A stretch of 64,000 nucleotides of DNA. Source: Scyliorhinus canicula. Lineage: Eukaryota. Each line of letters opens with the position of its first letter. The first letter of the stretch is position 1. Location of the stretch: the NCBI RefSeq assembly GCF_902713615.1, contig NW_024055490.1, positions 1-64,000 of the forward strand. The letters run 5' to 3'. The notes beneath the pieces were generated by a model that was given only the letters and a program-made list of their open reading frames with translations, was not told the DNA's origin and made no database searches. This document shows positions 24,009 through 60,817 of this stretch, piece after piece. A program made the translations under genes and the position numbers.

Positions 24009-24935
24009 ATGTCAGGGAAGGCAGTACAATGCTCCTCCTGCAGAATGTTTGAGGTGAGGGACGCCGTCAGTGTCCCTGCTGATTTCATCTGTGGGAAGTG
24101 CACCCAACTCCAGCTCCTCAAAAACCGTGTTAGGGACCTGGAGCTTGAGCTGGATGAACTTCGGATCATTCGGGAGGCAGAGGGGGTCATAGATGGGAGC
24201 TTCAGGGAAGTAGTTACACCAAAGACTGGAGATAGATGGGTAACTGTAAGAGGGACATGGGAAGAAGCAATCAGTGCAGGGACCCCCTGCGGTCGTTCCC
24301 CTGAGTAACAAGTATACCGTTTTGGATACGTGGGGGGGGGGGACTTACCAGGGGTAAGCCATGGGGTACGGGCCTCTGGCACGGAGTCTGTCCCTGTTGC
24401 TCAGAAGGGAAGGGGGGAAAGGAGTAGAACATTAGTAATTGGGGACTCAATAGTCAGGGGCACAGATAGGAGATTTTGTGGGAGCGAGAGAGACTCACGT
24501 TTGGTATGTTGCCTCCCAGGTGCAAGGGTAAGTGATGTCTCGGATCGTGTTTTCCGGGTCCTTAAGGGGGAGGGGGAGCAGCCCCAAGTCGTAGTCCACA
24601 TTGGCACTAACGACATAGGTAGGAAAGGGGACAAGGATGTCAGGCAGGCCTTTAGGGAGCTAGGATGGAAGCTCAGAGCGAGAACAAACAGAGTTGTTAT
24701 CTCTGGGTTGTTGCCCGTGCCACGTGATAGTGAGATGAGGAATAGGGAGAGAGAGCAATTAAACACGTGGCTACAGGGATGGTGCAGGCGGGAGGGATTC
24801 AGATTTCTGGATAACTGGGGCTCTTTCTGGGGAAGGTGGGACCTCTATAGACAGGATGGTCTACATCTGAACCTGAGGGGCACCAATATCCTGGGGGGGA
24901 GATTTGTTAGTGCTCTTTGGGGGGGTTTAAACTAA
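24009..24935 (+). pseudogene. CR1 ORF1 (zinc-binding/leucine zipper + SGNH esterase), frameshifted
   Basis: CSSCRMF..CGKC..LELELDELR, then VIGDSIVRG, HIGTND and DGLHLN; indels near 24255 and 24335 relative to copy 2. Confidence 0.9.
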
Positions 24936-27849
24936 TTCAGCAGGGGCATGGGAACCTGGATTGTAGTTTTGGGATACGGGAGATTGAGAGTATAGAGGTC
25001 AGGAGCACAGATTTGACTTCGCAGGAGGGTGCCAGTGTTCAGGTAGGTGGTTTGAAGTGTGTCTACTTCAATGCCAGGAGTATACGAAATAAGGTGGGGG
25101 AACTGGCAGCATGGGTTGGTACCTGGGACTTCGACGTTGTGGCCATTTCAGAGACATGGATAGAGCAGGGACAGGAATGGTTGTTGCAGGTTCCGGGGTT
25201 TAGGTGTTTTAGTAAGCTCAGAGAAGGGGGCAAAAGAGGGGCAGGTGTGGCGCTGCTAGTCAAGGACAGAAGAAGAGTCCCCATCTAGCATCCTTTCCGC
25301 CACAGGTGGCGGAAAGGATGCTAGATGGGGACTCTTCTTCTGAGGTAGTATGGGCTGAGGTTAGAAACAGGAAAGGAGAGGTCACCCTGTTGGGAGTTTT
25401 CTATAGGCCACCTAATAGTTCTAGGGATGTAGAGGAAAGGATGGCGAAGATGATTCTGGAAAAGAGCGAAAGTAACAGGGTAGTTGTTATTAGAGACTTT
25501 AACTTTCCAAATATTGACTGGAAAAGATATAGTTCGAGTACATTAGATGGGTCGTTCTTTGTACAATGTGTGCAGGAGGGTTTCCTGACACAATATGTTG
25601 ACAGGCCAACAAGAGGCGAGGCCACATTGGATTTGGTTTTGGGTAATGAACCAGGCCAGGTGTTAGATCTGGAGGTAGGTGAGCACTTTGGAAACAGTGA
25701 CCACAATTCGGTGACCTTTACGTTAGTGATGGAAAGGGATAAGTATACCCCGCAGGGCAAGAGTTATAGCTGGGGGAAGGGCAATTATGATGCCATTAGA
25801 CATGACTTAGGATGTGTTGGTTGGAGAAGTAGGCTGCAAGGGTTGGGCACACTGGATATGTGGAGATTGTTCAAGGAACAGCTATTGCATGTTCTTGATA
25901 AGTACGTACCAGTCAGGCAGGGAGGAAGGGGTCGAGCGAGGGAACCGTGGTTTACCAAAGAAGTGGAATCTCTTGTTAAGAGGAAGAAGGAGGACTATAT
26001 GAAGATGAGGCATGAAGTTTCAGTTGGGGCGCTTGATAGTTACAAGGAAGCGAGGAAGGATCTAAAGAGAGAGCTGAGACGAGCAAGGAGGGGACATGAG
26101 AAGTCTTTGGCAGGTAGGATCAAGGAAAACCCAAAAGCTTTCTATAGGTATGTCAGGAATAAAAGAATGACTAGGGTAAGAGTAGGGCCAGTCAAGGACA
26201 GTGGTGGGAAGTTGTGTGTGGAGGCTGAGGAGATACGCGAGATACTAAATGAATACTTTTCGTCAGTATTCACTCAAGAAAAAGATAATATTGTGGAGGA
26301 GAATGCTGAGACACAGGCTATTAGAATAGTTGGCATTGAGGTGCGTAGGGAAGAAGTGTTGGCAATTCTGGACAAGGTGAAAATAGATAAGTCCCCGGGG
26401 CCGGATGGGATTTATCCTAGGATTCTCTGGGAAGCCAGGGAAGAGATTGCTGAGCCTTTGGCTTTGATTTTTAGGTCATCATTGGCCACAGGAATAGTGC
26501 CAGAGGACTGGAGGATAGCAAATGTGGTCCCTTTGTTCAAGAAGGGGAGTAGAGATAACCCCGGTAACTATAGGCCGGTGAGCCTAACGTCTGTGGTGGG
26601 GAAGGTCTTGGAGAGGATTATAAAAGATACGATTTATAATCATCTAGATAGGAATAATATGATTAGGGATAGTCAGCATGGTTTTGTGAAGGGTAGGTCA
26701 TGCCTCACAAACCTTATCGAGTTCTTTGAGAAGGTGACTGAACAGGTAGACGAGGGTAGAGCAGTTGATGTGGTGTATGTGGATTTCAGTAAAGCGTTTG
26801 ATAAGGTTCCCCACGGTCGGCTATTGCAGAAAATACGGAGGCTGGGGATTGAGGGTGATTTAGAGATGTGGATCAGAAATTGGCTAGTTGAAAGAAGACA
26901 GAGAGTGGTAGTTGATGGGAAATGTTCAGAATGGAGTTCAGTTACGAGTGGCGTACCACAAGGATCTGTTCTGGGGCCGCTGCTGTTTGTCATTTTTATA
27001 AATGACCTAGAGGAAGGCGCAGAAGGATGGGTGAGTAAATTTGCAGACGACACTAAAGTTGGTGCAGTTGTAGACAGTGCGGAAGGATGTTGCAGGTTAC
27101 AGAGGGACATAGATAAGCTGCAGAGCTGGGCTGAGAGGTGGCAAATGGAGTTTAATGTGGAGAAGTGTGAGGTGATTCATTTTGGAAAGAATAACAGGAA
27201 TGCGGAATATTTGGCTAATGGTAAAATTCTTGGTAGTGTGGATGAGCAGAGGGATCTCGGTGTCCATGTACATAGATCCCTGAAAGTTGCCACCCAGGTT
27301 GATAGGGTTGTGAAGAAGGCCTATGGTGTGTTGGCCTTTATTGGTAGAGGGATTGAGTTCCGGAGCCATGAGGTCATGTTGCAGTTGTACAAAACTCTAG
27401 TACGGCCGCATTTGGAGTATTGCGTACAGTTCTGGTCGCCTCATTATAGGAAGGACGTGGAAGCTTTGGAACGGGTACAGAGGAGATTTACCAGGATGTT
27501 GCCTGGTATGGAGGGAAAATCTTATGAGGAAAGGCTGATGGATTTGAGGTTGTTTTCGTTAGAGAGAAGAAGGTTAAGAGGTGACTTAACAGAGGCATAC
27601 AAAATGATCAGAGAGTTAGATAGGGTGGACAGCGAGAGCCTTCTTCCGTGGATGGAGGTGGCTAGCACGAGGGGACATAGCCTTAAATTGAGGGGTAATA
27701 GATATAGGACAGAGGTCAGAGGTGGTTTTTTTACGCAAAGAGTGGTGAGGCCGTGGAATGCCCTACCTGCAACAGTAGTGAACTCGCCAACATTGAGGGC
27801 ATTTAAAAATTTATTGGATAAGCATATGGATGATAAGGGCATAGTGTAG
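24926..27849 (+). pseudogene. CR1 ORF2 (APE endonuclease + RT), broken by a fold-back insertion
   Basis: YFNARS, SETW, SDH, YRPVSLTS and FADD motifs; stop at 25286-25288 inside the inverted duplication 25267-25342. Confidence 0.92.
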
Positions 27850-27948
27850 GTTAGATGGCCTTTAGTTTTTTTTCCATGTCGGTGCTACATCGAGGGCCGA
27901 AGTGCCTGTACTGCGCTGTATCGTTCTATGTTCTATGTTCTATGTTCT

Positions 27949-28923
27949 AAGATCAGCCTCTCAAAGCACTTCATTACAACTGACGTCAGGGCCACCGGGC
28001 GGTAGTCATTGAGGCATGTTGCCTGGTTCTTCTTTGGTACCGGTATGATGGTGGTCTTCCTGAAGCAGGTGGGGACCTCAGAGTGGAGTAGGGATAGGTT
28101 ACAGATGTCTGTGAATACCTCTGCCAGCTGGTATGCGTAGGCTCTGAGTGCCCGACCAGGGATCCCGTCCGGGCCCGTCGCCTTCCGTGGGTTCACTTTC
28201 AGGAAGGTCGAGCTGACTTCGCAAACTGTGATGGTGGGTATGGGTGAATTATGGGTTGCTGGGGCACTCGATAGCGGGTTGTTGGTTACCTGCTGAAACC
28301 GAGCATAGAATGCATTAAGTTCATCGGGGAGGGGTGCGCTGCTGCCAGAGATACTGCTCGGCTTCGCTTTGTAGCCCGTTATGTTGTTTAGTCCTTGCCA
28401 CAACCGCCGATATTCTGTCTGTGACTCTAGCTTAGTTTGATATTCTCTCTTGGCATCTCGGATGGCTTTGCGGAGGTTGTAACTGGATTTCTTGTATAGG
28501 ACAGTGTCGTCTGCCTTGAATGCCTCAGATCTGTCCTTCAGTAGGGAGTCATCTCGCAGTTGAGCCATGGTTTCCGGTTGGGGAACATACGTATTGTTTT
28601 CTTTGGCACGCAGTCGTCCACACATTTGCTGATGAAGTCTGTGACGGTGGTGACATACTCATTTAAGTTAGTCGCTGAGTTCTTAAATATGGACCAGTCC
28701 ACTGTCAATAAGCAGTCACATAAGAACTCTTCTGTCTCCTCGGACCAGCACTGCACAATCTTCTTAGTTGGATTCTCCCGCTTGAGTTTCTGCTTGTATG
28801 CCGGGAGAAGGAGCACAGTCTTATGGTCTGATTTCCCAAAGTGCGGTCGGGGGATGGAACGGTAGGCGCCCTTGATCTTTGAGTAGCAGTGGTCAAGAGT
28901 GTTGTCGCCCCTGGTGGGACAGG
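27949..28923 (-). mobile_element. Rex1/Babar-type LINE, upstream part
   Basis: TRGDNTLDHCY..HFGKSDH (APE end) and KATGPDGIPG..NDYRPVALTSVVMKCFERLI, which continues as MKRITSI.. at 22856. Confidence 0.88.
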
Positions 28924-31900
28924 AACATAGAACATAGAACATAGAACATAAAACACTAGAGTGCAGTCCGGGCCCTTCGGCCCTCGATGTTGCGCGGACC
29001 TGTGAAACCATCTGAAGCCTATCTGACCTACACTATTCCATTTTCATCCATATGTCTATCCAGTGACCATTTAAATGCCCTTAAAGTTGGCGAGTCTACT
29101 ACTGTTGCAGGCAGGGCGTTCCACACCCCTACTACTCTCTGAATAAAGAAACTGCCTCTGATATCTGTCCTATATCTATCACCCGTCAATTTAATGCTAT
29201 GTCCCCTCGTGTTGGTCATCACCATCCGAAGAAAAAGACTCTCACTGTCCACCCTATCTAACCCTCTGACTATCTTATATGTCTCTATTAAGTCACCTCT
29301 CAGCCTTCTCCTCTCTAACGAAAACAACCTCAAGTCCCTGAGCCTTTCCTCGTAAGAGCTTCCCTCCATATCAGGCAACATCCTAGTACATCTCCTCTGA
29401 ACCCTTTCCAAAGCTTCCACATCCTTCCTATAATGTGGTGACCAGAACTGCACGCAGTACTCCAGGTGCGGCCGCACCAGAGTTATGTACAGCTGCATCA
29501 TTACCTTGTGGTTCCGAAACTCAATCCCCTTGCTTATAAAGGCTAGCACACCATATGCCTTCTTAACAGCCCTATTAACCTGGGTGGCAACTTTCAGGGA
29601 TTTATGTACCTGGATGCCGAAATCTCTCTGTTCATCTACACTACCAAGAATCTTGCCATTAGCCCAGTACTCTGCATTCCTGTTACTCCTTCCAAAGTGA
29701 ACCACCTCACACTTTTCCGCATTAAACTCCATCTGCCACCTCTCAGCCCAGCTCTGCAGCTTATCTATGTCCCTCTGTATCCTATAACATCCTTCAGCAC
29801 TATCCACAACTCCACCGACCTTCGTGTCATCTGCAAATTTACTAACCCATCCTTCTACACCCTCTTCCAGGTCATTTATAAAAATGACAAACAGCAGTGG
29901 CCCCAAAACAGATCCTTGCGGTACACCACTAGTAACTGAACTCCAGGATGAACATTTGCCATCAACCACCACCCTCTGTCTTCTTTCAGCTAGCCAATTA
30001 CTGATCCAAACCGCTAAATCACCTTCAATTCCATACTTCCTTATTTTCTGCAATAGCGTACCGTGGGGAACCTTATCAAACGCCTTACTGAAATCCATAT
30101 ACACCACATCAACAGCTTTACCCTGATCCACCTGTATGGTCACCTTCTCAAAAAACTCAATAAGGTTTGTGAGGCATGACCTACCCTTCACAAAACCGTG
30201 TTGAGTATCGCTAATCAACTTGTTCTTTTCAAGATGATTATAAACCCTATCTCTTATAACCTTTTCCAACATTTTACCCACAACTGAAGTAAGGCTCACA
30301 GGTCTATAATTACCAGGGTTGTCTCTACTCTCCTTCTTGAACAAGGGGACAACATTTGCTATCCTCCAGTCTTCCGGCACTATTCCTGTCGACAAAGACG
30401 ACATAAAGATCAAGGACAAAGGCTCTGCAATCTCCCCCCTGGCTTCCCAGAGAATCCTAGGATAAATCCCATCTGGCCCAGGGACTTATCTATTTTGACA
30501 TTTTCTAAAATTGCTAACACCTCCTCCTTTTGAACCTCAATTCCATATAGCCTGGTCGACTGAACCTGAGTGTTCTCCTCGACAACATTGTCTTTCTCCA
30601 GTGTAAACACTGACGAAAAATATCCATTTAATGCTTCCCCTGTCTCCTCTGATTTCACACACAACTTTCCACTACTATCCTTGATTGGCCCTAATCTTAC
30701 TCTCGTCATTCTTTTGTTCCTGATATACCTATAGAAAGCCTTAGGGTTTTCCTTGATCCTATCCGCCAACGACTTTTCGTGTCCTCTCCTCGCTCTTCTT
30801 AACTCTCCCATTAGGTCCTTCCTGGCTAACTTGTAACTCTCAAGTGCCCTAACTGAGCCTTCATGTCTCATCCTAACATAAGCCTTCTTCTTCCTCTTGA
30901 CAAGTGCTTCAACTTCCTTAGTAAACCACGGTTCCCTTGCTCGACAACTTCCTCCCTGCCTGACAGGTACATACTCATCAAGGACACGCAGTAGCTGTTC
31001 CTTGAAAAAGCTCCACATTTCGATTGTACCCATCCCCTGCAGTTTCCTTCCCCATCCTATACATCCTAAATCTTGCCGAATAGCATCATAATTGCCTTTC
31101 CCCCAGCTATAATTCTTGCCTTGCGGTATATACCTATCCCTGCCCATTGCTAAAGTAAACATAACCGAGTTGTGATCACTATCACCAAAGTGCTCACCTA
31201 CATCTAAATCTAACACCTGGCCGGGTTCATTACCCAGTACCAAATCCAATGTGGCCTCGCCCCTTGTTGGCCTGTCTACATACTGTGTCAGAAAACCCTC
31301 CTGCACACACTGCACAAAAACTGACCCATCTATAGTACTCGAACTATAGTATTTCTAGTCAATATTTGGAAAGTTAAAGTCCCCCATAACAACTACCCTG
31401 TTACTCTCGCTCCTGTCAAGAATCATCTTTGCAATCCTTTCCTCTACATCTCTGGAACTATTCGGAGGTCTATAGACAACTCCCAACAGGGTGACCTCTC
31501 CTCTACTGTTCCTAACCTCGGCCCATACTGCCTCAGTAGACGAGTCCTCAAGCGTCCTTTCTACCGCCGTAATACTTTCCTTGATTAACAATGCCACACC
31601 CCCCCCCCCCCTCTTTTACCATCTTCTCTGTTCTTACAGAAACATCTAAATCCTGGAACCTGCAACAACCATTCCTGTCCCTGCTTTACCCATGTCTCCG
31701 AAATCGCCACAACATCGAGATCCCAGGTACCAACCCATGCTGCAAGCTCACCCACCTTATTCCGGATGCTCCTGGCGTTGAAGTAGACACACCTCAAACC
31801 AGAGTCCTGCTTGCCGGTGCCCTCTTTCGAACTTTTAACCCTATCCCTGACCTCACTACTCTCAACATCCTGTACACTGGGACTACAATTTAGGTTCCCA

Positions 31901-32164
31901 TCCCCCTGCTGAATTAGTTTAAACCCCCCCGAAGAGCACTAGCAAATCTTCCCCCCCCCCCCCCCAGGATATTGGTACCCCTCTGGTTCAGGTGAAGACC
32001 ATCCTGTTTGTAGAGGTCCCACCTACCCCAGAATGAGCCCCAATTATCCAGGAAACCAAAACCCTCCCCCCTGCACCATCCCTGTAGCCATGTGTTCAAC
32101 TCCTCTCTCTCCTTATTTCTCACTTCGCTAGCACGTGGCATGGGTAACAACCCAGAGATAACAA
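28924..32164 (-). mobile_element. 5'-truncated CR1 LINE, related subfamily, frameshifted ORF2
   Basis: (AACATAG)n tail at 28924; ORF2 pieces 31585-31797, 31355-31597, 30410-31315 and 29028-30419; ORF1 end ..ASALRGGLN* at 31914-32150. Confidence 0.95.
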
Positions 32165-32309
32165 CATCTTTAAGGAGATGTGCTGGTGGAATTTTGGCAG
32201 TACACTCTTGAGGTTGGCTTTGTTGAAATTACTGAATTACTGACATTTTATATGGAGCCAGTGGAATTCCCATTCACCAATACCATCGTGTTCGAATTCG
32301 ACAGAAGAC

Positions 32310-33778: not shown

Positions 33779-34284
33779 GTTTTTTTGACAGCTGGGGTAC
33801 TTTCAATTGAATGAATTAATAAATCAGAAATAAAATTGTCACGTCATTCATAATACTCATGAAGCTCTTGAAATTTCCCAAAGCCCAGCAGGTTCACCAA
33901 TGTCCTTCAGGAGAAGAAATCTTCCCTCCTTACCCTGTCTGGCCTCTATGTGTCTAGTTCAGCAGTGATGTGGTTGACGCTTAACTATCTCTGATATTGC
34001 CGAGCAAGCCAATCAGTTCAAGGTCTGCTGCCACAGAAAGTCAGATGTGAATTCAACTGTCCGAAGTGCACCTTATCAAAATGGTGGTTCACATCCGGAT
34101 TCACAGAATGGACAGTTAATGCTGACTTTGTCGAGACTTCCGGTTGCGGCTATGACCAGCTAAGTCGCACGTTTGGCTGCTCCTGCGAGGAAGGTGTTTT
34201 CGGGCCGATTGGAGGGCCCCTAACGGCGCTGGAACGACGATTCCCGGTGGGGGAAGGTTCCCAGAGGAGAACCCTGCAAAACTT

Positions 34285-35130
34285 ATGGTCGTCACCCGAA
34301 GTGGGGCAGAAAAAAAAGCGGCAGCAGCTCCCCGAAAAAAGCGGGGGAAGAAACCCAAAATGGCGGCCGGCGGCGCACCCGAGGACTGGAGGAAATGGGC
34401 GGAGCAGCAGCAGGCCGTTCTCCTGCGCTTCTTCACGGAGCTGAAAGTGGAGCTGCTGGAGTCGATGAACGCGACGACCACCAGGCTGATGGGAGCCCAG
34501 GCGACCCAAGAGGCGTCAATTCGGGAGCTGCAGCAGGAGATGGCTGTGAGGGAGGAGGAGGCCACGGTCCTCGTGGGAAAGGTGGAGGTGCACGAGGCAC
34601 TCCACCTGAAATGGCAAAACCGACTGGAGGAGATGGATACCCGCATGAGGCGGAAAAACCTGAGGATCCTGGGCCTGGCAGAAGGGCTGGAGGGGTCGGA
34701 CCTCCCGAGGTATGTGGCAGAAATGCTGGGCTCACTGATGGGGGCAGGGGCCGTCCCTTCGCCCCTGGAACTGGAGGAGGCCTACAGAGTAATGGCCAGG
34801 AAGCCAAGAGCAAACGAACCCCCGAGGGCGGTGCTGGTTCGGTTCCAGCGACTCAGTGACCGGGAGAGGGTGCTGAGGTGGGCCAAGAGAGAGAGGAGCA
34901 GCAAATGGGAGAACTCGACGGTGAGGATCTACCAGGACTGGAGTGCGGAGGTGGCAAAGCGGCGGGCCCGGTTCAACCGGACGAAGGCGGTGCTGCATGC
35001 CAAGAGAATCAGATTCGGGATGCTGCAGCCAGCGCGCTTGTGGGTGACCTATAAGGACCAGCACCACTATTTCGAGTCCCCGGAGGAGGCGTGGGCCTTT
35101 GTCCAGGAAGAAAAGCTGGACTCGAACTAG
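34285..35130 (+). CDS. L1 ORF1p (coiled coil, RRM, CTD), intact
   Basis: 281 aa with RRKNLRILGLAEG, PRAVLVRF, IYQDWSAEVAKRR and QPARLWVT. Confidence 0.9.
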   Translation: MVVTRSGAEKKAAAAPRKKRGKKPKMAAGGAPEDWRKWAEQQQAVLLRFFTELKVELLESMNATTTRLMGAQATQEASIRELQQEMAVREEEATVLVGKVEVHEALHLKWQNRLEEMDTRMRRKNLRILGLAEGLEGSDLPRYVAEMLGSLMGAGAVPSPLELEEAYRVMARKPRANEPPRAVLVRFQRLSDRERVLRWAKRERSSKWENSTVRIYQDWSAEVAKRRARFNRTKAVLHAKRIRFGMLQPARLWVTYKDQHHYFESPEEAWAFVQEEKLDSN

Positions 35131-35824
35131 AACCAGGGGATACTTGGCGGTCGTTGCCGCTCTGGTACTTTAAGCTGGACACGTGGCTTTCTTTTGGTTG
35201 GATTTTCACTTGGCTGTATTTTTGGACCCTTTTTTTCTCTCTACCAGTTTTTTCTTTTTTCTGTTATTTATAATGTTATGTTGGGGGGGCGGGGTGGGGG
35301 GGGAGTGCCGGGGGTATGTGTTTCTTGTGGGGTTTTTTTTATCGGTGTGGGATCGGGGACGGGGGTGGAACTGAAGATGGAGGGGTGGGGAGTGGCAGGG
35401 CGAAAGCGCGGGCTTTCCTCTGGTTTCCCGCGCGCGGGGCAGAGGAGGGAGCAGGGTGCGAGGAAGGGGCGTGGTCAGCAATGGCTCCCTTTCCCGCGCT
35501 GGAGCGGGGTCAAGGAGGGGTGGTAAGGGGGGGGATGTCCCCCATGCCGGGAGGAGTCGGATTGTGGCAGGGGCAGCCGGGTCAGCGTAAACCAGCTGAC
35601 TTACGGAAGTACTATGGAGGGTGCATCGCGGCTAGGAAGGGTCCTAGCCTGGGGGGGGAGGGGGTGGGGGGGGAGGGGGAGGGGGGAAGGGGGGGGCTAC
35701 CGGGTTGCTGCTGAAAAGGCCAGGGAGGAGAAGTTGAGGACCGGAGGGGTGGGGGGAGGGCGCCATCGCCATGGGGAGCGGGTCAGAAGGGGAGGGCTGA
35801 CTCGGGGCGAGCAGGTGAAAGGAT

Positions 35825-38800
35825 ATGGCTAGTCGGCAGGGGAGAGGGGCGGGCTGCCCTTCGACCCGGCTGATCACTTGGAATGTGAGGGGGCTGAATG
35901 GGCCGGTCAAGAGAACGAGAGTAATCTCGCATTTGAAGGGACTGAAGGCGGATGCAGCAATGCTACAAGAGACCCATTTGAAGGTGGTGGACCAGGTCCG
36001 CCTGAGAAGGGGGTGGGTGGGACAGGTGTTCCACTCAGGACTGGATGCAAAGAACCGGGGGGTGGCGATCCTGGTAGGGAAGAGGGTGTCGTTCGTGGCG
36101 GCGGAGGTGGTGGCGGATAAAGAGGGTAGATATGTCATGGTGAAGGGTAGGCTACAGGGGGAGAAAGTGGTGATGGTTAATGTGTATGCCCCGAATTGGG
36201 ACGACGCTGGCTTCATGAGGCGCCTACTGGGCCTCATTCCGGACCTGGAGGCAGGGGGCCTGATCATGGGGGGGGACTTCAACACAGTGCTGGACCCCGA
36301 GCTGGACAGATCGAGTTCAAGGACGAGTAGGAGGCCGGCAGCGGCAGAAGTGTTAAAGGGGTTTATGGAGCAGATGGGAGGGGTAGATCCCTGGAGGTTT
36401 GGGAGGCCGAGGGCGAGGGAGTATTCCTTTTTCTCCCATGTCCACAGAGTCTATTCTAGAATTGACTTTTTTGTATTGAGCAGGGGACTGATCCCGAAAG
36501 TACGGGAAGTGGAGTACTCGGCCATAGCGGTCTCAGACCATGCGCCACACTGGGTAGATTTGGAAATGGGGGAGGCGCGAGACCAGCGTCCGCTGTGGCG
36601 CCTGGATGTGGGGTTGCTGGCGGATGAGGAGGTGTGTAAGAGGGTCCGGAAAAGCATTGAAAGATATCTGGACACTAATGACACGGGGGAGGTGCAGGTG
36701 GGGATGGTCTGGGAGGCCCTGAAGGCGGTGATCCGGGGGGAGCTGATCTCCATACGGGCACATAGGGAAAGGAGGGAGAGACAGGAGAGGGAGAGGCTGG
36801 TGGGGGAGCTTTTGGACGTGGATAGGAGATATGCGGAGGCACCAGAGGAGGGGCTGTTGGGGGAACGGCGCAGTTTGCAGGCTAAGTTCGACCTGTTGAC
36901 CACCAGAAAGGCAGAGACACAGTGGAGAAGGGCGCAGGGCGCGATTTATGAATATGGGGAGAAGGCGAGTAGGATGTTGGCGCATCAGCTCCGCAAGCGG
37001 GATGCGGCTAGAGAAATTGGGGGAGTGAGGGAGAGGGGTGGGAACGTAGTGCAGAAGGGGCCAGAAGTAAATGGGGTCTTCAGAGACTTCTATAAGGAGC
37101 TGTATCGGTCAGAGCCGCCGACGAGGGGAGGGGGGATGGAGGGCTTCTTGAACAAATTGAGGTTCCCCAAGGTCCAAGAGGAGCTGGTAGAGGGGCTGGG
37201 GGCGCCGATAGGGTTAGAGGAGCTAGTCAAGGGGATTGGGCATATGCAGACGGGGAAGGCGCCGGGGCCAGACGGGTTCCCGGTGGAATTTTACAAAAAA
37301 TATGCGGATTTGGTGGGCCCTGTGCTGGTACGAGCCTTCAACGAGGCATGGGAGGGGGGGGGCCTCTGCCCCCGACAATGTCGCAGGCACTGATCTCTCT
37401 GATCTTGAAGCGGGACAAGGACCCCGTGCAGTGTGGGTCATATAGGCCTATCTCGCTCCTGAATGTGGACGCCAAGTTGCTGGCAAAGATCCTGGCTACC
37501 AGGATAGAGGATTGTGTGCCAGGGGTGATACACGAGGACCAGACGGGTTTTGTGAAAGGGCGGCAGCTTAATACGAACGTGCGGAGACTGCTAAACGTCA
37601 TCATGATGCCGGCAGTGGAGGGTGAGGCAGAGATAGTGGTGGCATTGGACGCGGAGAAAGCATTTGATAGGGTGGAGTGGAAGTACCTGTGGGAGACGCT
37701 GGAATGGTTTGGATTTGGGGAGGGATCTATTAAGTGGGTGAAGCTGCTCTATTCGGCCCCGACGGCAAGTGTAGTGACGAATGGTAGGAGATCGGAGTAT
37801 TTTGGGCTCCACCGGGGGACCAGACAGGGGTGCCCCTTGTCCCCCCCCTGCTCTTCGCACTGGCAATTGAACCGTTGGCGATGGCACTGAGGGGCTCAGG
37901 GGGGTGGAGAGGGCTGACAAGGGGCGGGGAGGAGCACCGGGTATCGCTATACGCGGACGACCTGCTGCTATACGTGGCAGACCCAGAAGGGGGAATGCCG
38001 GAGGTGATGGAACTGCTAGCAGAATTTGGGGACTTTTCGGGGTACAAGCTAAACTTGGGCAAGAGTGAGGTATTTGTGATACACCCAGGGGACCAGGAAG
38101 AGGGAATCGGGAGACTCCCGTTTAAGAGAGCAGGAAAGAGTTTTAGATATTTAGGGGTGCAGGTGGTAAGGAACTGGGGGATTCTCCACAAGCTGAACTT
38201 CTCCAGGCTGGTGGAACAGATGGAGGACGAATTTAAAAGGTGGGACATGGTGCCGCTGTCGCTGGCGGGCAGAGTGCAGTCCGTTAAAATGACGGTCCTC
38301 CCGAGGTTTTTGTTTTTATTTCAGTGCTTGCCCATCTTCCTCCCTAGGGCCTTCTTCAAAAAGGTGACGAGTAGCATCATGAGCTACGTGTGGACGCACG
38401 GCACCCCAAGGGTGAGGAGGGTCTTCTTGGAGCGGAGTAGGGATAGTGGAGGGCTGGCATTACCCAACCTTTCGGGGTATTACTGGGCGGCAAATGTATC
38501 GATGGTGCGCAAGTGGATGATGGAAGGGGAGGGGGCAGCTTGGAAACGAATGGAGAGAGCGTCCTGTGGCAACATAAGCCTGGGGGCCCTAGTAACGGCG
38601 CCATGGCCGCTCCCTCCCACGAGGTACACCACGAGCCCGGTGGTGGCGGCCACCCTCAAGATCTGGGGGCAGTGGAGGCGACACAGGGGGGAAGTGGGAG
38701 GTCTGATGGAGGCACCGTTAAGAGGGAACCATAGATTCATCCCGGGGAACATGGACGGGGGATTTCAGAGCTGGCACAGGGTGGGCATCAGGCAGCTGAA

Positions 38801-39623
38801 GGATCTGTTTGTAGATGGGAGGTTTGCGAGCCTGAGAGAGCTGGAGGAGAAATTCGGGCTCCCCCCGGGAAACATGTTTAGACATTTGCAGGTGAAGACA
38901 TTTGCTAGACGCCAGGTGGAAGGGTTTCCCTTGCTCCCCAGTAGGGGGGCGAGTGATAGGGTGGTCTCGGGGGTCTGGGTCGGAGGGGGGAGGATATCGG
39001 ACATCTACAAAGTAATGCAGGAGGCGGAGGAGGCATCAGTAGAGGAGCTGAAAGCCAAGTGGGAGGGGGAGCTGGGAGAACAGATAGAGGATGGGACATG
39101 GGCTGATGCCCTGGAGAGGGTTAATTCTTCCTCCTCGTGTGCGAGGCTTAGCCTCATTCAATTTAAGGTGCTACATAGAGCCCATATGACGGGGACAAGG
39201 ATAAGTCGGTTCTTTGGGGGTGAGGACAGATGTGTCAGGTGTTCGGGAAGTCCAGCGAACCATGTCCATATGTTTTGGGCATGTCCGGCACTGGAGGAGT
39301 TCTGGAAGGGGGTGGCAAGGACGGTGTCGAGGGTGGTGGGATCCAGGGTCAAACCAGGATGGGGACTTGCGATCTTTGGGGTTGGGGTGGAGCCGGGGGT
39401 ACAGGAGGCGAGAGAGGCCGGAGTACTGGCCTTTGCGTCCCTAGTTGCTCGAAGAAGGATACTAATACAGTGGAAGGACGCAAGGCCTCCAAGCGTGGAA
39501 ACTTGGATTAATGACATGGCAAGCTTTATTCAGTTGGAAAGGGTCAAATTCGCCCTGAGAGGGTCGGTACAAGGGTTCTTCAGGCGGTGGCAGCCTTTCC
39601 TCGACTTTTTGGCTCAGAGATAG
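35825..39623 (+). pseudogene. L1 ORF2p (APE, RT, CCHC) with two frameshifts at homopolymer runs
   Basis: ITWNVRGLN, LQETHL, GDFN, SRID, SDH, KAPGPDG, YRPISLLN, QGCPLSP, YADD and CVRC..HMFWAC; frame changes at G9 37354-37362 and C8 37841-37848. Confidence 0.92.
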
Positions 39624-50045: not shown

Positions 50046-50519
50046 TGTGTGATTCATCCAGCAGAGGGCAGCAGAGCAGAGCTACTGATCAGCTGTTCTG
50101 GGGAAATTTGCATACGTGCAGTGCGGTCAGCCTAAGTTGAAGGTGAATCTGCGAAGGAGACCCGAGGAGTTTGAGTGAAGGCAATCATCCAGCAGAGGGC
50201 AGCAGAGCAGAGCTACTGATCAGCTGTTCTGGGGAAATTTGCATACGTGCAGTGCGGTCAGCCTAAGTTGAAGGTGGTTTGTGGAGAGGCTGTTGGCAAG
50301 TGACAGTTAAACCCGAAAACTTCGTCTGTGTTTCCCACCCTACCTCCTCCTCTAACCAACCCCCCCACCCCACGGTGGTTGGTAAGCGGGAGCAGGGGCC
50401 TGTCGTGAAGGTGAGTGAGTGCCTTTAAATTTGCTTACCTTTCAGCGGGAGCAGGGTTTGAGGTAATATCAGGTAAGCTCTTCCTTTCTTTTTCTTGTTT
50501 TTTTTTAAATCTAGAGGTG

Positions 50520-51445
50520 ATGTCAGGGAAGGCAGTACAATGCTCCTCCTGCAGAATGTTTGAGGTGAGGGACGCCGTCAGTGTCCCTGCTGATTTCATC
50601 TGTGGGAAGTGCACCCAACTCCAGCTCCTCAAAAACCGTGTTAGGGACCTGGAGCTTGAGCTGGATGAACTTCGGATCATTCGGGAGGCAGAGGGGGTCA
50701 TAGATAGGAGCTTCAGGGAAGTAGTTACACCAAAGATTGGAGATAGATGGGTAACTGTAAGAGGGACTGGGAAGAAGCAGTCAGTGCAGGGACCCCCTGC
50801 GGTCGTTCCCCTGAGTAACAAGTATACCGTTTTGGATACGTGTGGGGGGGACGACTTACCAGGGGTAAGCCATGGGGTACGGGCCTCTGGCACGGAGTCT
50901 GTCCCTGTTGCTCAGAAGGGAAGGGGGAAAGGAGTAGAACATTAGTAATTGGGGACTCAATAGTCAGGGGCACAGATAGGAGATTTTGTGGGAGCGAGAG
51001 AGACTCACGTTTGGTATGTTGCCTCCCAGGTGCAAGGGTACGTGATGTCTCGGATCGTGTTTTCCGGGTCCTTAAGGGGAGGGGGAGCAACCCCAAGTCG
51101 TAGTCCACATTGGCACTAACGACATAGGTAGGAAAGGGGACAAGGATGTCAGGCAGGCCTTTAAGGAGCTAGGATGGAAGCTCAGAGCGAGAACAAACAG
51201 AGTTGTTATCTCTGGGTTGTTGCCCGTGCCACGTGATAGTGAGATGAGGAATAGGGAGAGAGAGCAATTAAACACGTGGCTACAGGGATGGTGCAGGCAG
51301 GAGGGATTCAGATTTCTGGATAACTGGGGCTCTTTCTGGGGAAGGTGGGACCTCTATAGACAGGATGGTCTACATCTGAACCTGAGGGGCACCAATATCC
51401 TGGGGGGGGAGATTTGTTAGTGCTCTTTGGGGGGGTTTAAACTAA
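50520..51445 (+). pseudogene. CR1 ORF1, frameshifted
   Basis: Same protein as 24009-24935; indels in purine runs near 50925, 51080 and 51405. Confidence 0.88.
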
Positions 51446-54330
51446 TTCAGCAGGGGCATGGGAACCTGGATTGTAGTTTTGGGGTACGGGAGATTGAGAG
51501 TATAGAGGTCAGGAGCACAGATTTGACTTCGCAGGAGGGTGCCAGTGTTCAGGTAGGTGGTTTGAAGTGTGTCTACTTCAATGCCAGGAGTATACGAAAT
51601 AAGGTAGGGGAACTGGCAGCATGGGTTGGTACCTGGGACTTCGATGTTGTGGCCATTTCAGAGACATGGATAGAGCAGGGACAGGAATGGCTGTTGCAGG
51701 TTCCGGGGTTTAGGTGTTTTAGTAAGCTCAGAGAAGGGGGCAAAAGAGGGGGAGGTGTGGCGCTGCTAGTCAAGGACAGTATTACGGTGGCGGAAAGGAT
51801 GCTAGATGGGGACTCTTCTTCTGAGGTAGTATGGGCTGAGGTTAGAAACAGGAAAGGAGAGGTCACCCTGTTGGGAGTTTTCTATAGGCCACCTAATAGT
51901 TCTAGGGATGTAGAGGAAAGGATGGCGAAGATGATTCTGGAAAAGAGCGAAAGTAACAGGGTAGTTGTTATGGGAGACTTTAACTTTCCAAATATTGACT
52001 GGAAAAGATATAGTTCGAGTACATTAGATGGGTCGTTCTTTGTACAATGTGTGCAGGAGGGTTTCCTGACACAATATGTTGACAGGCCAACAAGAGGCGA
52101 GGCCACATTGGATTTGGTTTTGGGTAATGAACCAGGCCAGGTGTTAGATCTGGAGGTAGGTGAGCACTTTGGAAACAGTGACCACAATTCGGTGACCTTT
52201 ACGTTAGTGATGGAAAGGGATACGTATACCCCGCAGGGCAAGAGTTATAGCTGGGGGAAGGGCAATTATGATGCCATTAGACATGACTTAGGATGTGTTG
52301 GTTGGAGAAGTAGGCTGCAAGGGTTGGGCACACTGGATATGTGGAGCTTGTTCAAGGAACAGCTATTGCATGTTCTTGATAAGTACGTACCAGTCAGGCA
52401 GGGAGGAAGGGGTCGAGCGAGGGAACCGTGGTTTACCAAAGAAGTGGAATCTCTTGTTAAGAGGAAGAAGGAGGCCTATGTGAAGATGAGGCGTGAAGTT
52501 TCAGTTGGGGCGCTTGATAGTTACAAGGAAGCGAGGAAGGATCTAAAGAGAGAGCTGAGACGAGCAAGGAGGGGACATGAGAAGTCTTTGGCAGGTAGGA
52601 TCAAGGAAAACCCAAAAGCTTTCTATAGGTATGTCAGGAATAAAAGAATGACTAGGGTAAGAGTAGGGCCAGTCAAGGACAGTGGTGGGAAGTTGTGTGT
52701 GGAGGCTGAGGAGATAAGTGAGATACTAAATGAATACTTTTCGTCAGTATTCACTCAAGAAAAAGATAATATTGTGGAGGAGAATGCTGAGACCCAGGCT
52801 ATTAGAATAGATGGCATTGAGGTGCGTAGGGAAGAAGTGTCGGCAATTCTGGACAAGGTGAAAATAGATAAGTCCCCGGGGCCGGATGGGATTTATCCTA
52901 GGATTCTCTGGGAAGCCAGGGAAGAGATTGCTGAGCCTTTGGCTTTGATTTTTAGGTCATCATTGGCTACAGGAATAGTGCCAGAGGACTGGAGGATAGC
53001 AAATGTGGTCCCTTTGTTCAAGAAGGGGAGTAGACATAACCCCGGTAACTATAGGCCGGTGAGCCTAACGTCTGTGGTGGGTAAAGTCTTGGAGAGGATT
53101 ATAAAAGATACGATTTATAATCATCTAGATAGGAATAATATGATTAGGGACAGTCAGCATGGTTTTGTGAAGGGTAGGTCATGCCTCACAAACCTTATCG
53201 AGTTCTTTGAGAAGGTGACTGAACAGGTAGACGAGGGTAGAGCAGTTGATGTGGTGTATATGGATTTCAGTAAAGCGTTTGATAAGGTTCCCCACGGTCG
53301 GCTATTGCAGAAAATACGGAGGCTGGGGATTGAGGGTGATTTAGAGATGTGGATCAGAAATTGGCTAGTTGAAAGAAGACAGAGAGTGGTAGTTGATGGG
53401 AAATGTTCAGAATGGCGTTCAGTTACGAGTGGCGTACCACAAGGATCTGTTCTGGGGCCGTTGCTGTTTGTCATTTTTATAAATGACCTAGAGGAGGGCG
53501 CAGAAGGATGGGTGACTAAATTTGCAGATGACACTAAAGTCGGTGGAGTTGTAGACAGTGCGGAAGGATGTTGCAGGTTACAGAGGGACATAGATAAGCT
53601 GCAGAGCTGGGCTGAGAGGTGGCAAATGGAGTTTAATGTGGAGAAGTGTGAGGTGATTCACTTTGGAAAGAATAACAGAAATGCGGAATATTTGGCTAAT
53701 GGTAAAATTCTTGGTAGTGTGGATGAGCAGAGGGATCTCGGTGTCCATGTACATAGATCCCTGAAAGTTGCCACCCAGGTTGATAGGGTTGTGAAGAAGG
53801 CCTATGGTGTGTTGGCCTTTATTGGTAGAGGGATTGAGTTCCGGAGCCATGAAGTCATGTTGCAGTTGTACAAAACTCTAGTACGGCCGCATTTGGAGTA
53901 TTGCGTACAGTTCTGGTCGCCTCATTATAGGAAGGACGTGGAAGCTTTGGAACGGGTGCAGAGGAGATTTACCAGGATGTTGCCTGGTATGGAGGGAAAA
54001 TCTTATGAGGAAAGGCTGATGGACTTGAGGTTGTTTTCGTTAGAGAGAAGAAGGTTAAGAGGTGACTTAATAGAGGCATACAAAATGATCAGAGGGTTAG
54101 ATAGGGTGGACAGCGAGAGCCTTCTCCCGCGGATGGAGGTGGCTAGCACGAGGGGACATAGCCTTAAATTGAGGGGTAATAGATATAGGACAGAGGTCAG
54201 AGGTGGGTTTTTTACGCAAAGAGTGGTGAGGCCGTGGAATGCCCTACCTGCAACAGTAGTGAACACGCCAACATTGAGGGCATTTAAAAATTTATTGGAT
54301 AAGCATATGGATGATAAGGGCATAGTGTAG
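51436..54330 (+). CDS. CR1 ORF2 (APE endonuclease + reverse transcriptase), open frame with no upstream AUG
   Basis: Stop-free frame 51427-54330 with all APE and RT motifs; the first in-frame ATG is at 51799, downstream of YFNARS and SETW. Confidence 0.9.
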   Translation, partial: FKLIQQGHGNLDCSFGVREIESIEVRSTDLTSQEGASVQVGGLKCVYFNARSIRNKVGELAAWVGTWDFDVVAISETWIEQGQEWLLQVPGFRCFSKLREGGKRGGGVALLVKDSITVAERMLDGDSSSEVVWAEVRNRKGEVTLLGVFYRPPNSSRDVEERMAKMILEKSESNRVVVMGDFNFPNIDWKRYSSSTLDGSFFVQCVQEGFLTQYVDRPTRGEATLDLVLGNEPGQVLDLEVGEHFGNSDHNSVTFTLVMERDTYTPQGKSYSWGKGNYDAIRHDLGCVGWRSRLQGLGTLDMWSLFKEQLLHVLDKYVPVRQGGRGRAREPWFTKEVESLVKRKKEAYVKMRREVSVGALDSYKEARKDLKRELRRARRGHEKSLAGRIKENPKAFYRYVRNKRMTRVRVGPVKDSGGKLCVEAEEISEILNEYFSSVFTQEKDNIVEENAETQAIRIDGIEVRREEVSAILDKVKIDKSPGPDGIYPRILWEAREEIAEPLALIFRSSLATGIVPEDWRIANVVPLFKKGSRHNPGNYRPVSLTSVVGKVLERIIKDTIYNHLDRNNMIRDSQHGFVKGRSCLTNLIEFFEKVTEQVDEGRAVDVVYMDFSKAFDKVPHGRLLQKIRRLGIEGDLEMWIRNWLVERRQRVVVDGKCSEWRSVTSGVPQGSVLGPLLFVIFINDLEEGAEGWVTKFADDTKVGGVVDSAEGCCRLQRDIDKLQSWAERWQMEFNVEKCEVIHFGKNNRNAEYLANGKILGSVDEQRDLGVHVHRSLKVATQVDRVVKKAYGVLAFIGRGIEFRSHEVMLQLYKTLVRPHLEYCVQFWSPHYRKDVEALERVQRRFTRMLPGMEGKSYEERLMDLRLFSLERRRLRGDLIEAYKMIRGLDRVDSESLLPRMEVASTRGHSLKLRGNRYRTEVRGGFFTQRVVRPWNALPATVVNTPTLRAFKNLLDKHMDDKGIV

Positions 54331-55308
54331 GTTAGATGGCCTTTAGATTTTTTCCATGTCGGTGCAACATCGAGGGCCGAAGGGCCTGTACTGCGCTGTA
54401 TCGTTCTATGTTCTATATAAACATTGACAAGTACTGGTGCAGTATTAATTGAAACAGAGTGTCCTGTATTATAAACAAAGACAGAGTCTAGTCTAACAAA
54501 AATACAGACAGTGATCAGTGCAGTAATTATTGAGGCAATGCCTGCTTCGTGTAATGCAAGGCATCTGGATTTAAATTCCATCTGCTGGCCAAACTTTGCA
54601 ATTGCAGTTGCTGTGAAAATGTTGTTGTCAGGTATAATCCATGATGTTGATGTATCCATAATCCATTTGCACAAATGTAATATCACATCGCCTTCTACGG
54701 GAGGTGCCAAAATTTAAGGTGTAACTAATTTCAGGTGTCGGTGGCTGATTCTCCCACATTGAGATCAGCACCAGAGCAAAGCGGCTCAATTCCTGGTCAT
54801 GCACTTTTGTTCATCTTTGTTAAATAGAGGAATGTTTACCTGGGCGTTGTATGGAGTCCATGGGAAATGTAACATTCATCTCACAACCATAGTGTTGGGG
54901 AGAGTTTATTGATTGATTATACCACCTGCAAAATGGTTGGGGCCATTGTGTCTGAAGCTTCCCAGGAAGTTAACAAGGGACTTTAATGTTAAAGGGGCAA
55001 TGTGTGTGCGCGTGTAAAACAGATAATGCGTGTGTGAGGGACTGTGTGTGTGTGGCTGTGTTTGTGTGAAACACATGTTGCGTACAAATCTCACAACGGT
55101 CACGGCATCCTTCTATTTCAATAGATACACAGCAAATATTTCCACAAATGTTGCACACGAAGCGCCCAATTGTCGTTCTGGGTTGTCGCTTTTTCGGTTT
55201 GTGTCTATTTCAAAGCTGCTAAATCCACTGGTCCTGGTGGTTCACACCAGCCCACCGACAGTGTCGAATGTTTATTGAAATTGATGAAAGTAAGGTGAAG
55301 AGGTAGAC

Positions 55309-59980: not shown

Positions 59981-60108
59981 GTGAGTAGTTTTTATTGTCC
60001 AGGTCTCTCACTGTTACTGTCTCAGTGTTAGTCTCTCTCTGGAATGTTCTAGAGTCACCAATCATTTCACCAGCATTAATCCTCGGGCTTTTTGATATAT
60101 TTTTACAG

Positions 60109-60410
60109 GTGTCCAGTCGGATGTTGTGTTGACTCAGCCAGAGGCAGAGACCGGGCGTCCCGGAGGCTCCCTGACACTGACCTGTAAAACCAGCTTCAGC
60201 GTTAGCAGCTATGGCGTGCACTGGGTCCGCCAAATTCCCGGACAGGGGCTGGAGTGGTTGGTATATTACTATAGTTCATCCAGCAACAACTACGCCCCAG
60301 CCATTAAAGATCGATTCACTGCGTCCAAAGACACTTCAAGCAACATCTTCTCTTTGGCCATGAGGAGCCTGAAGACCGAAGACACCGCCATCTATTACTG
60401 TGCAAGAGAC
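60109..60410 (+). CDS. IGHV: germline VH exon, IgM-like
   Basis: Acceptor TTTTACAG at 60101-60108; [100 protein letters not shown]; both Cys and the Trp are conserved, no stops. Confidence 0.97.
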
Positions 60411-60449
60411 CACAGCGAGAGGAACCAGGGCTGGACCCGCACAAGAACA
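60411..60449 (+). other. V 3' RSS (23-bp spacer)
   Basis: CACAGCG (60411-60417), 23 nt, ACAAGAACA (60441-60449). Confidence 0.93.
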
Positions 60450-60817
60450 GCTCGAGAGGGAATTCAGCAACTTGCAGCTTAACCTGAAGGTTAGTACTTG
60501 ATTCAAATGTAATATTAATGTCAGTGATCAGAGTCAAAGCACACGCTGCTTCTTACATAACTAACACAGAGAAAATTAAACAGTAAAACTGAACACACCA
60601 ATCGATCTAATAGGATGAGCTTTTGTCTGTTTATATTTACTGTTCACAGTTTCAGCAATTAGAGACTTGCCTATATCCTGGTTTTATTATTTCTGATTCT
60701 TGGAGAAAGTGCATGTACATTGAGTTTTATAAACTGCTGTCAAATTATAAATTTATCAGAAATAAACGTGTATTTGAAATGAATATTGAATGGCAGGACT
60801 GAACAGAGAGTGAGTGC

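Follow-up and report, generated by a model that had tools for sequence, protein, structure and literature searches.

A conserved candidate -1 ribosomal frameshift site at the ORF1-ORF2 junction of CR1 retrotransposons

We analysed a 64-kb window of the Scyliorhinus canicula genome (the whole stretch of 64,000 nucleotides from the start of contig NW_024055490.1, assembly GCF_902713615.1), which contains three copies of a CR1-type long interspersed nuclear element (LINE). The first open reading frame (ORF1) of these elements ends in the heptamer T_TTA_AAC immediately followed by the stop codon, and the second (ORF2) runs through it in the -1 frame without a stop. This site is real, far beyond chance, and conserved at the nucleotide level across vertebrate-type CR1. 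We propose that ribosomes shift by -1 at T_TTA_AAC to give an ORF1-ORF2 fusion, a reading to which we assign a probability of about 0.75 on the strength of sequence comparison. Most ribosomes would stop at UAA/UAG and release an ORF1 protein of about 308 amino acids, and a minority would slip by -1 on U_UUA_AAC and continue into ORF2, giving an esterase-linker-APE endonuclease-reverse transcriptase (RT) fusion of about 1270 amino acids. The slip rate is probably low, since no stimulatory structure was seen (see below). The slip itself, its rate and the fusion protein are what we infer.

Each CR1 copy in the window carries TTTAAACTAA once (24926-24935 in copy 1; Table 1). Three matches compare with 0.18 expected, a count that is no independent test as the three are homologous copies; of the window's 5858 stops in six frames, 24 (0.4%) follow a canonical heptamer. 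The first-pass annotation of this DNA had placed the heptamer in X_XXY_YYZ phase before the ORF1 stop, with ORF2 open in -1, and this arrangement is found in all three copies: ORF1 reads GGT TTA AAC TAA and ORF2 reads TTT AAA CTA ATT CAG. In copy 1 the -1 frame is open from 24911, 15 nucleotides (nt) upstream of the heptamer. The same annotation was right to call UUUAAAC a coronavirus-type slippery site: U_UUA_AAC is the type of infectious bronchitis virus (IBV) and other coronaviruses (PMC5009743, PMC3542737; here and below, literature statements refer to the portions of each source consulted), and on mammalian ribosomes few heptamers shift more readily (PMC5009743). Copy 2 has no in-frame ATG until codon 122 from the heptamer (51799), which does lie behind the endonuclease motifs YFNARS and SETW; the exonuclease III match begins at codon 44, the L1 endonuclease match begins at codons 49-56, and the Pfam APE match also begins well upstream of this ATG. 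The nearby ATG at 24948, already described as out of the ORF2 frame, belongs to the ORF1 frame, where it begins a stretch of 15 codons.

DNA and protein searches of the shark genome gave seven lineages (A, A2, B, C, D, D2 and E), with APE identities to family A of 86% for A2, 76% for E, 49% for D2, 47% for B and 45% for C. TTTAAACTAR is kept in 140 of 145 genome loci across the seven (A 40/40, A2 32/32, B 34/36, C 16/16, D 8/11, D2 1/1, E 9/9); of the other five, one has TGG for TAG, one has TTTGAAC, and in three the junction is lacking. These loci are the best-scoring copies after removal of three identical rows, and the queries contained the junction or ended in Leu-Asn, which favours intact copies; it is the comparison between lineages, not the copy counts, that carries the weight. 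Beyond the shark, 18 of 34 metagenome loci matched the ORF1 C-terminal profile. Eight of these carry TTTAAACTAG, one GTTAAACTAG and one TTTAAACAAG, three end ahead of the junction and five are distant or degraded, with no junction visible (L089, L099, L100, L103 and L104). L076, which the profile missed owing to an upstream frameshift, also carries TTTAAACTAG, with a -1 frame of 796 codons; L094 has TTTAAAC followed by AAG. Nine amphibian- or bird-type metagenome loci (labels given by likeness to named homologous proteins) keep the heptamer and stop, and the distant L072 has G_TTA_AAC. The site is kept from sharks to amphibian- and bird-type loci, and synonymous variants destroying the heptamer, which the first-pass annotation would have counted against frameshifting, were seen in no lineage.

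At the protein level, 54 of 107 ORF1 homologues, from sharks, rays, frogs and birds, end in Leu-Asn; the rest are mostly shortened or extended proteins, or fish esterases with a different terminus. The statement of the first-pass annotation that amniote CR1 ORF1 ends in ALN holds for the bird protein P0086 and two unnamed proteins. The residue before Leu-Asn takes 11 identities among the 54 homologues, and a T-ending codon is possible for it in 53/54, compared with 22/54 one residue earlier (background frequency of residues without a T-ending codon, 13%). Fish esterase ORF1s (P0091-P0105 and P0107) lack the Leu-Asn end, so that the signal does not reach them, and no relative was found among the viral contigs searched. 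Two vertebrate-type CR1 ORF1 proteins stand under records of Pseudomonas aeruginosa and of a frog-parasitic flatworm (P0008 and P0075), likely through host contamination.

One natural copy was then taken from each of 17 lineages, 16 of which were aligned over the ORF1 C-terminus (L076 is too short), with a median pairwise identity of 34%. In 17 columns, 85% or more of the rows agree on a single degenerate amino acid. The final two of these are the single-codon ones, with TTA in 16/16 and AAC in 16/16, whereas the remaining 15, control columns that share the same tree, use two to four codons each (0/15 with one codon). Elsewhere TTA makes up 24 of the 208 Leu codons and AAC 39 of the 79 codons for Asn. 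The codon ahead of TTA encodes seven amino acids (G, T, D, H, S, C and A) and ends in T in 16/17 lineages, against a background of 24%; the representatives have T_TTA_AAC in 16/17 and G_TTA_AAC in 1/17 (L072), a P-site deviation of the same kind as GUU in equine arteritis virus (PMC3542737). Because TTA and AAC are invariant while none of the 15 control columns holds a single codon, the constraint, to judge from codon usage, acts on the nucleotides and not on the protein. The least probable explanation that we considered is that the motif is kept for another RNA role (ribonucleoprotein assembly or protein binding) or for the C-terminal Leu-Asn, with ORF2 reached by another route such as internal initiation. 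It would account for Leu-Asn being invariant in 38/38 aligned ORF1 proteins (rows picked among those with this ending), and the G-tract described below could be a protein-binding site; yet protein constraint cannot fix synonymous positions, and an unrelated RNA motif need not stand in phase at the sole short overlap of the ORFs.

The -1 frame opens just 3-15 nt above the heptamer in 14/17 lineages, and a stop-free linker of varying length follows. For 13 lineages the APE motif could be placed and a copy is open (L074 is broken, L075 and L081 are cut and the motif of L076 was not located); in these 13 the distance from heptamer to APE takes nine values from 105 to 258 nt (35-86 codons), all multiples of 3, with no stop in 570 -1-frame codons compared with 39 and 56 in the other two frames. 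The linker is also open in most copies of the young families (A 40/40, A2 31/32, C 13/16, E 9/9 and B 28/35). Between A and A2 (five pairs) the ratio of nonsynonymous to synonymous substitution rates (dN/dS) is 0.13-0.16 in late ORF1, 0.65-0.84 in the linker and 0.06-0.09 in the APE codons above the first AUG. The stop-free -1 frame of the linker and the low dN/dS upstream of the first AUG argue that translation of ORF2 enters at the ORF1 stop or close to it. No AUG precedes the APE motif in A (39/40), A2 (31/31 open copies), D, D2 and L071, so that in young families the first ORF2 AUG lies inside the endonuclease; an AUG is present farther down the linker in B, E (7/9 copies), L072 and L083. 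Neither UAAUG nor an AUG beside the ORF1 stop occurs in the window families A and A2. Identical A2 copies stand at separate loci, which indicates that A2 was recently active; a family active not long ago therefore lacks a usable AUG. The heptamer is conserved, and the start codon is not.

Alternatively, a change in RNA or DNA could bring ORF2 into frame, through splicing, slippage of the polymerase on G/T runs or mutant copies with a one-base insertion. Natural one-ORF fusions of ORF1 and ORF2 through a small indel do exist (L105; L136/L137, which are one duplicated locus; L138; L183-L188), reaching 1330 codons, and in L138 and L187 one extra T within the heptamer gives a DNA image of the predicted frameshift product. 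An AG|GGG also lies 8 nt beyond the stop in most lineages. However, there is no polypyrimidine tract and family B has no AG. Splicing had been raised as an alternative start for ORF2, and four RNA runs span the junction (summed depth 17-156): five joints are listed over 2301 nt, not one of which has GT..AG ends or bridges the junction (loose ends are the best 24 of 424 rows, differences 40 of 573 rows). The reads stem from many, mostly passive copies, and bear on RNA, not on translation. We also considered the fused copies as a master lineage. In a tree of 42 copies the six fused A2 copies lie dispersed among normal ones, and a single clade of them is rejected (approximately unbiased test, p-AU 0.0002), so they are independent accidents; this rejection does not separate frameshifting from reinitiation. 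A search for longer, fused proteins gave five matches, spliced gene models and not clean fusions, which are weak either way. Framing at the RNA or DNA level is, on this evidence, very unlikely. In run X21, a peak of depth ~1100 at 50454-50915, in the 5' half of ORF1, has the opposite read orientation to the ORF2 signal; it could be antisense or a host transcript with a CR1 fragment.

Several observations weigh against frameshifting and are gathered here. The canonical features present at the CR1 junction are a zero-frame X_XXY_YYZ heptamer, an overlapping -1 ORF and conservation at synonymous positions; a textbook signal also needs a stem-loop or pseudoknot 5-9 nt downstream (PMC3542737), and this was not found. 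Folds of 45, 70 and 110 nt, run with and without a G-quadruplex option and covering secondary structure with pairs within 115 nt, gave no shared hairpin or helix (mean z 0.35, 0.11 and 0.02 over 16, 16 and 15 lineages). The weak CAGG/CCTG hairpin pointed out in copy 1 fares no better: it is not conserved across lineages, and 24926-25045 folds like its shuffles (z -0.64). Two-tier quadruplexes are predicted in 6/16 lineages only. The CR1 site thus resembles a -1 frameshift signal but misses one defining canonical feature, the 3' structure. Moreover, the lineages are related, and 16/16 does not amount to 16 independent events; one chimaera ORF1 homologue ends in ALNY (protein level only). A search with the chimaera ORF1 as query led to family B again.

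What does follow the heptamer is a G-tract at fixed distance (gapless anchoring), with G at +11, +12 and +14 in 16/16 lineages and at +13 and +18 in 15/16. Its two Gly codons are GGG in 15/15 and 13/13, compared with 84 of 278 Gly codons downstream, and by this measure it is a second nucleotide-level element. The tract (+11 to +20) and the adjacent stop codon may play a stimulatory role. Some viral shift sites are directly followed by stop codons. G-quadruplexes stimulate frameshifting in synthetic constructs, with no natural use known in 2016, and arterivirus frameshifting is stimulated by a protein complex (PMC5009743). A wider claim, which we hold tentatively and with the odds somewhat against it, is that frameshifting operates in canonical CR1 from sharks to birds, over several hundred million years, and that a Gag-Pol-like fusion is driven by the adjacent stop and the fixed G-tract (protein-bound or G-quadruplex-forming), not by a pseudoknot; this would be a frameshift signal found in nature, in a vertebrate LINE, that works without RNA structure.

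The remaining points against frameshifting concern its main rival, termination-reinitiation, in which ribosomes would restart at or just after the ORF1 stop (at AUG, or at near-cognate ATT or GTG), with TTTAAACTAR and the G-tract as a pause or tethering signal. ORF2 had been described as AUG-less; this stands for some lineages, including A and A2, and fails for 5/17, where an AUG stands in frame at 2-5 nt from the stop. They are family C, whose TAATG in the ORF2 frame is the stop-start of SART1, and four bird-type loci (L073, L076, L077 and L079) whose in-frame ATG lies 5 nt into the region of the stop. A, A2 and E have an in-frame ATT overlapping the stop. In addition, L1 and calicivirus tolerate AUG loss in the accounts consulted, so lack of an AUG is no exclusion, and the open linker is compatible with frameshifting and reinitiation alike. 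Reinitiation nevertheless leaves unexplained the exact in-phase X_XXY_YYZ upstream of the stop, the kept wobble T of a variable codon and the re-pairing in the sole variant. The would-be start codon is not conserved either (ATT, ATG, GAG, GTA, GAA, GGT, GAT, GAC and GCT), nor is an upstream UGGGA motif of the type of a termination upstream ribosome-binding site (TURBS). We consider reinitiation as the general route unlikely, although it might operate together with frameshifting in the AUG-bearing lineages. The fusion by frameshifting proposed in the first-pass annotation draws its support from the invariance of the heptamer, its conservation from shark to bird-type loci and the lack of a splice joint, the product being a predicted one.

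The features of the window are collected in Table 1. Copy 1 is a broken copy, with a frameshift in ORF1 and a 37-nt inversion (~25266-25302) in ORF2; in copy 2 ORF1 is broken and ORF2 open. The domains (SGNH esterase PF13472, E 3e-15, in ORF1; APE PF03372 and RT PF00078 both matched in ORF2), the 3' end, a short tandem repeat and not poly(A) ((GTTCTAT)n at 27923-27949, reversed at 28923-28960), and the bird homologues are the grounds for assigning the element to the CR1 LINEs with an esterase ORF1. The overlapping heptamer G_GGT_TTA is present in lineages A, A2, C, D and E, and absent from B, D2 and the non-shark loci.

Table 1. CR1 copies in the window and features of their ORF1-ORF2 junctions
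Feature	Position	Strand	Remark
CR1 copy 1	~22857-27949	+	97-98% identical to copy 2
CR1 copy 2	~50050-54415	+	97-98% identical to copy 1
CR1 copy 3, subfamily A2	~28923-32165	-	84% identical, 5'-truncated
5' untranslated region (UTR) array, 6.8 copies of 131-bp unit	22857..23750	+	
CR1 ORF1, copy 1: Cys-rich N-terminus, SGNH/GDSL esterase (PF13472)	24009..24935	+	frameshift-broken
-1 frame stop restricting ORF1/ORF2 overlap to 25 nt	24908..24910	+	
CR1 ORF2, copy 1: APE endonuclease and RT	24911..27849	+	interrupted by short inversion
Second overlapping in-phase heptamer G_GGT_TTA, copy 1	24923..24929	+	read from sequence
Slippery heptamer T_TTA_AAC, X_XXY_YYZ in ORF1 phase, copy 1	24926..24932	+	nucleotide-level conservation
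ORF1 stop right behind heptamer, copy 1	24933..24935	+	TAA; lineage representatives all TAA or TAG
Stop-free, poorly conserved -1-frame linker, junction to APE domain	24936..25057	+	dN/dS 0.65-0.84
G-tract, +11 to +20 from last heptamer base	24943..24952	+	candidate stimulator
Heptamer and stop, copy 2	51436..51445	+	copy 98% identical to copy 1
ORF2, copy 2: open over 969 codons	51421..54330	+	first ATG 51799, within APE domain
Heptamer and stop, copy 3	31914..31923	-	subfamily A2

The 131-bp unit of the 5' UTR is 85-91% identical among families A, A2 and B (22857-23750; L136, L140 and L183), while ORF1 and APE of A and B are just ~44-47% identical, which suggests exchange of 5' UTRs between CR1 lineages. 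RT-bearing LINE fragments (PF00078 and PF09004) at 21747-22952 and 27933-29032 (-) flank copies 1 and 3; the two copies look like insertions into these fragments. A second LINE type at 34156-39623 (+), with a matched APE, contrasts with CR1 in its ORF1-ORF2 gap of ~690 nt and an ATG at the start of ORF2; from this ORF layout we take it to be L1/Tx1-like. A 78-bp tandem repeat lies at 8251-8712 (5.9 copies, 95% alike), with an RT fragment nearby at 6650-7078. Finally, an immunoglobulin (Ig) V-set segment at 60096-60482 (+; PF07686, E 3e-19) ends in YYCAR followed by a CACAG-type signal, and the window looks like part of a shark Ig heavy-chain locus.

Most vertebrates have CR1 as their dominant group of retrotransposons (PMC13343379). 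Neither frameshifting nor an ORF overlap is mentioned in the portions of the CR1 literature examined, and no report of CR1 frameshifting was found; Kajikawa 1997, Kapitonov and Jurka 2003, Kojima 2005 and Haas 1997 lay outside the search, and an earlier remark is possible. A frameshifting review, in the part examined, gives the HeT-A gag as the sole non-LTR (long terminal repeat) case and does not mention CR1. A review of non-LTR translation (PMC3894237), in the part consulted, does not mention frameshifting and calls the mode of ORF2 translation an open question; the worked non-LTR examples use reinitiation (L1, SART1) or 2A skipping. Portions of PMC5972666, PMC1965478, PMC3905857, PMC4316615 and PMC2734521 were also drawn on. 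The 7-nt site can be changed synonymously, which makes the question of ORF2 translation directly testable. If frameshifting is correct, CR1 ORF2 annotations that begin at the first Met would be wrong, the CR1 enzyme would include the N-terminal and esterase domains of ORF1, and in the G-tract there would be a natural candidate for a type of stimulator known in 2016 from synthetic constructs only (PMC5009743).

Among known systems, canonical vertebrate CR1 with an esterase ORF1 has the same ORF1, an APE-RT ORF2 and the short 3' repeat. SART1, with its UAAUG, and mammalian L1 reinitiate on a bicistronic LINE RNA such as that of CR1, and family C shares the TAATG; ORF2 initiation in mammalian L1 is independent of its AUG. 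In the sources consulted, however, no slippery heptamer is described for either and the L1 spacer is 63 nt, whereas in CR1 the two ORFs share an overlap in -1 and an AUG is kept in some lineages only. In retroviral and LTR-retrotransposon gag-pol, the structural protein is made in excess and the catalytic protein as a minor fusion. The proposed CR1 products, ORF1 in excess and ORF2 as a minor fusion, may be likened to these, although CR1 has no capsid, protease or LTRs; Ty1 and Ty3 use +1 frameshifting (PMC5911963). With viral U_UUA_AAC (IBV/coronavirus) and G_UUA_AAC (equine arteritis virus) sites, CR1 shares the heptamer, the phase and an enzyme ORF in -1 (PMC5009743, PMC3542737), but it has a G-tract in place of a conserved 3' stem-loop or pseudoknot, and its host element is a LINE, not an RNA virus. 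For TRE5-A and TRE3-A of Dictyostelium, APE-type non-LTR retrotransposons like CR1, a review figure legend states that a -1 frameshift is needed for ORF2 (PMC5911963). They belong to another clade and host, and neither a shift site nor an experiment is given in the legend, whereas the site in CR1 is defined and conserved across vertebrate CR1.
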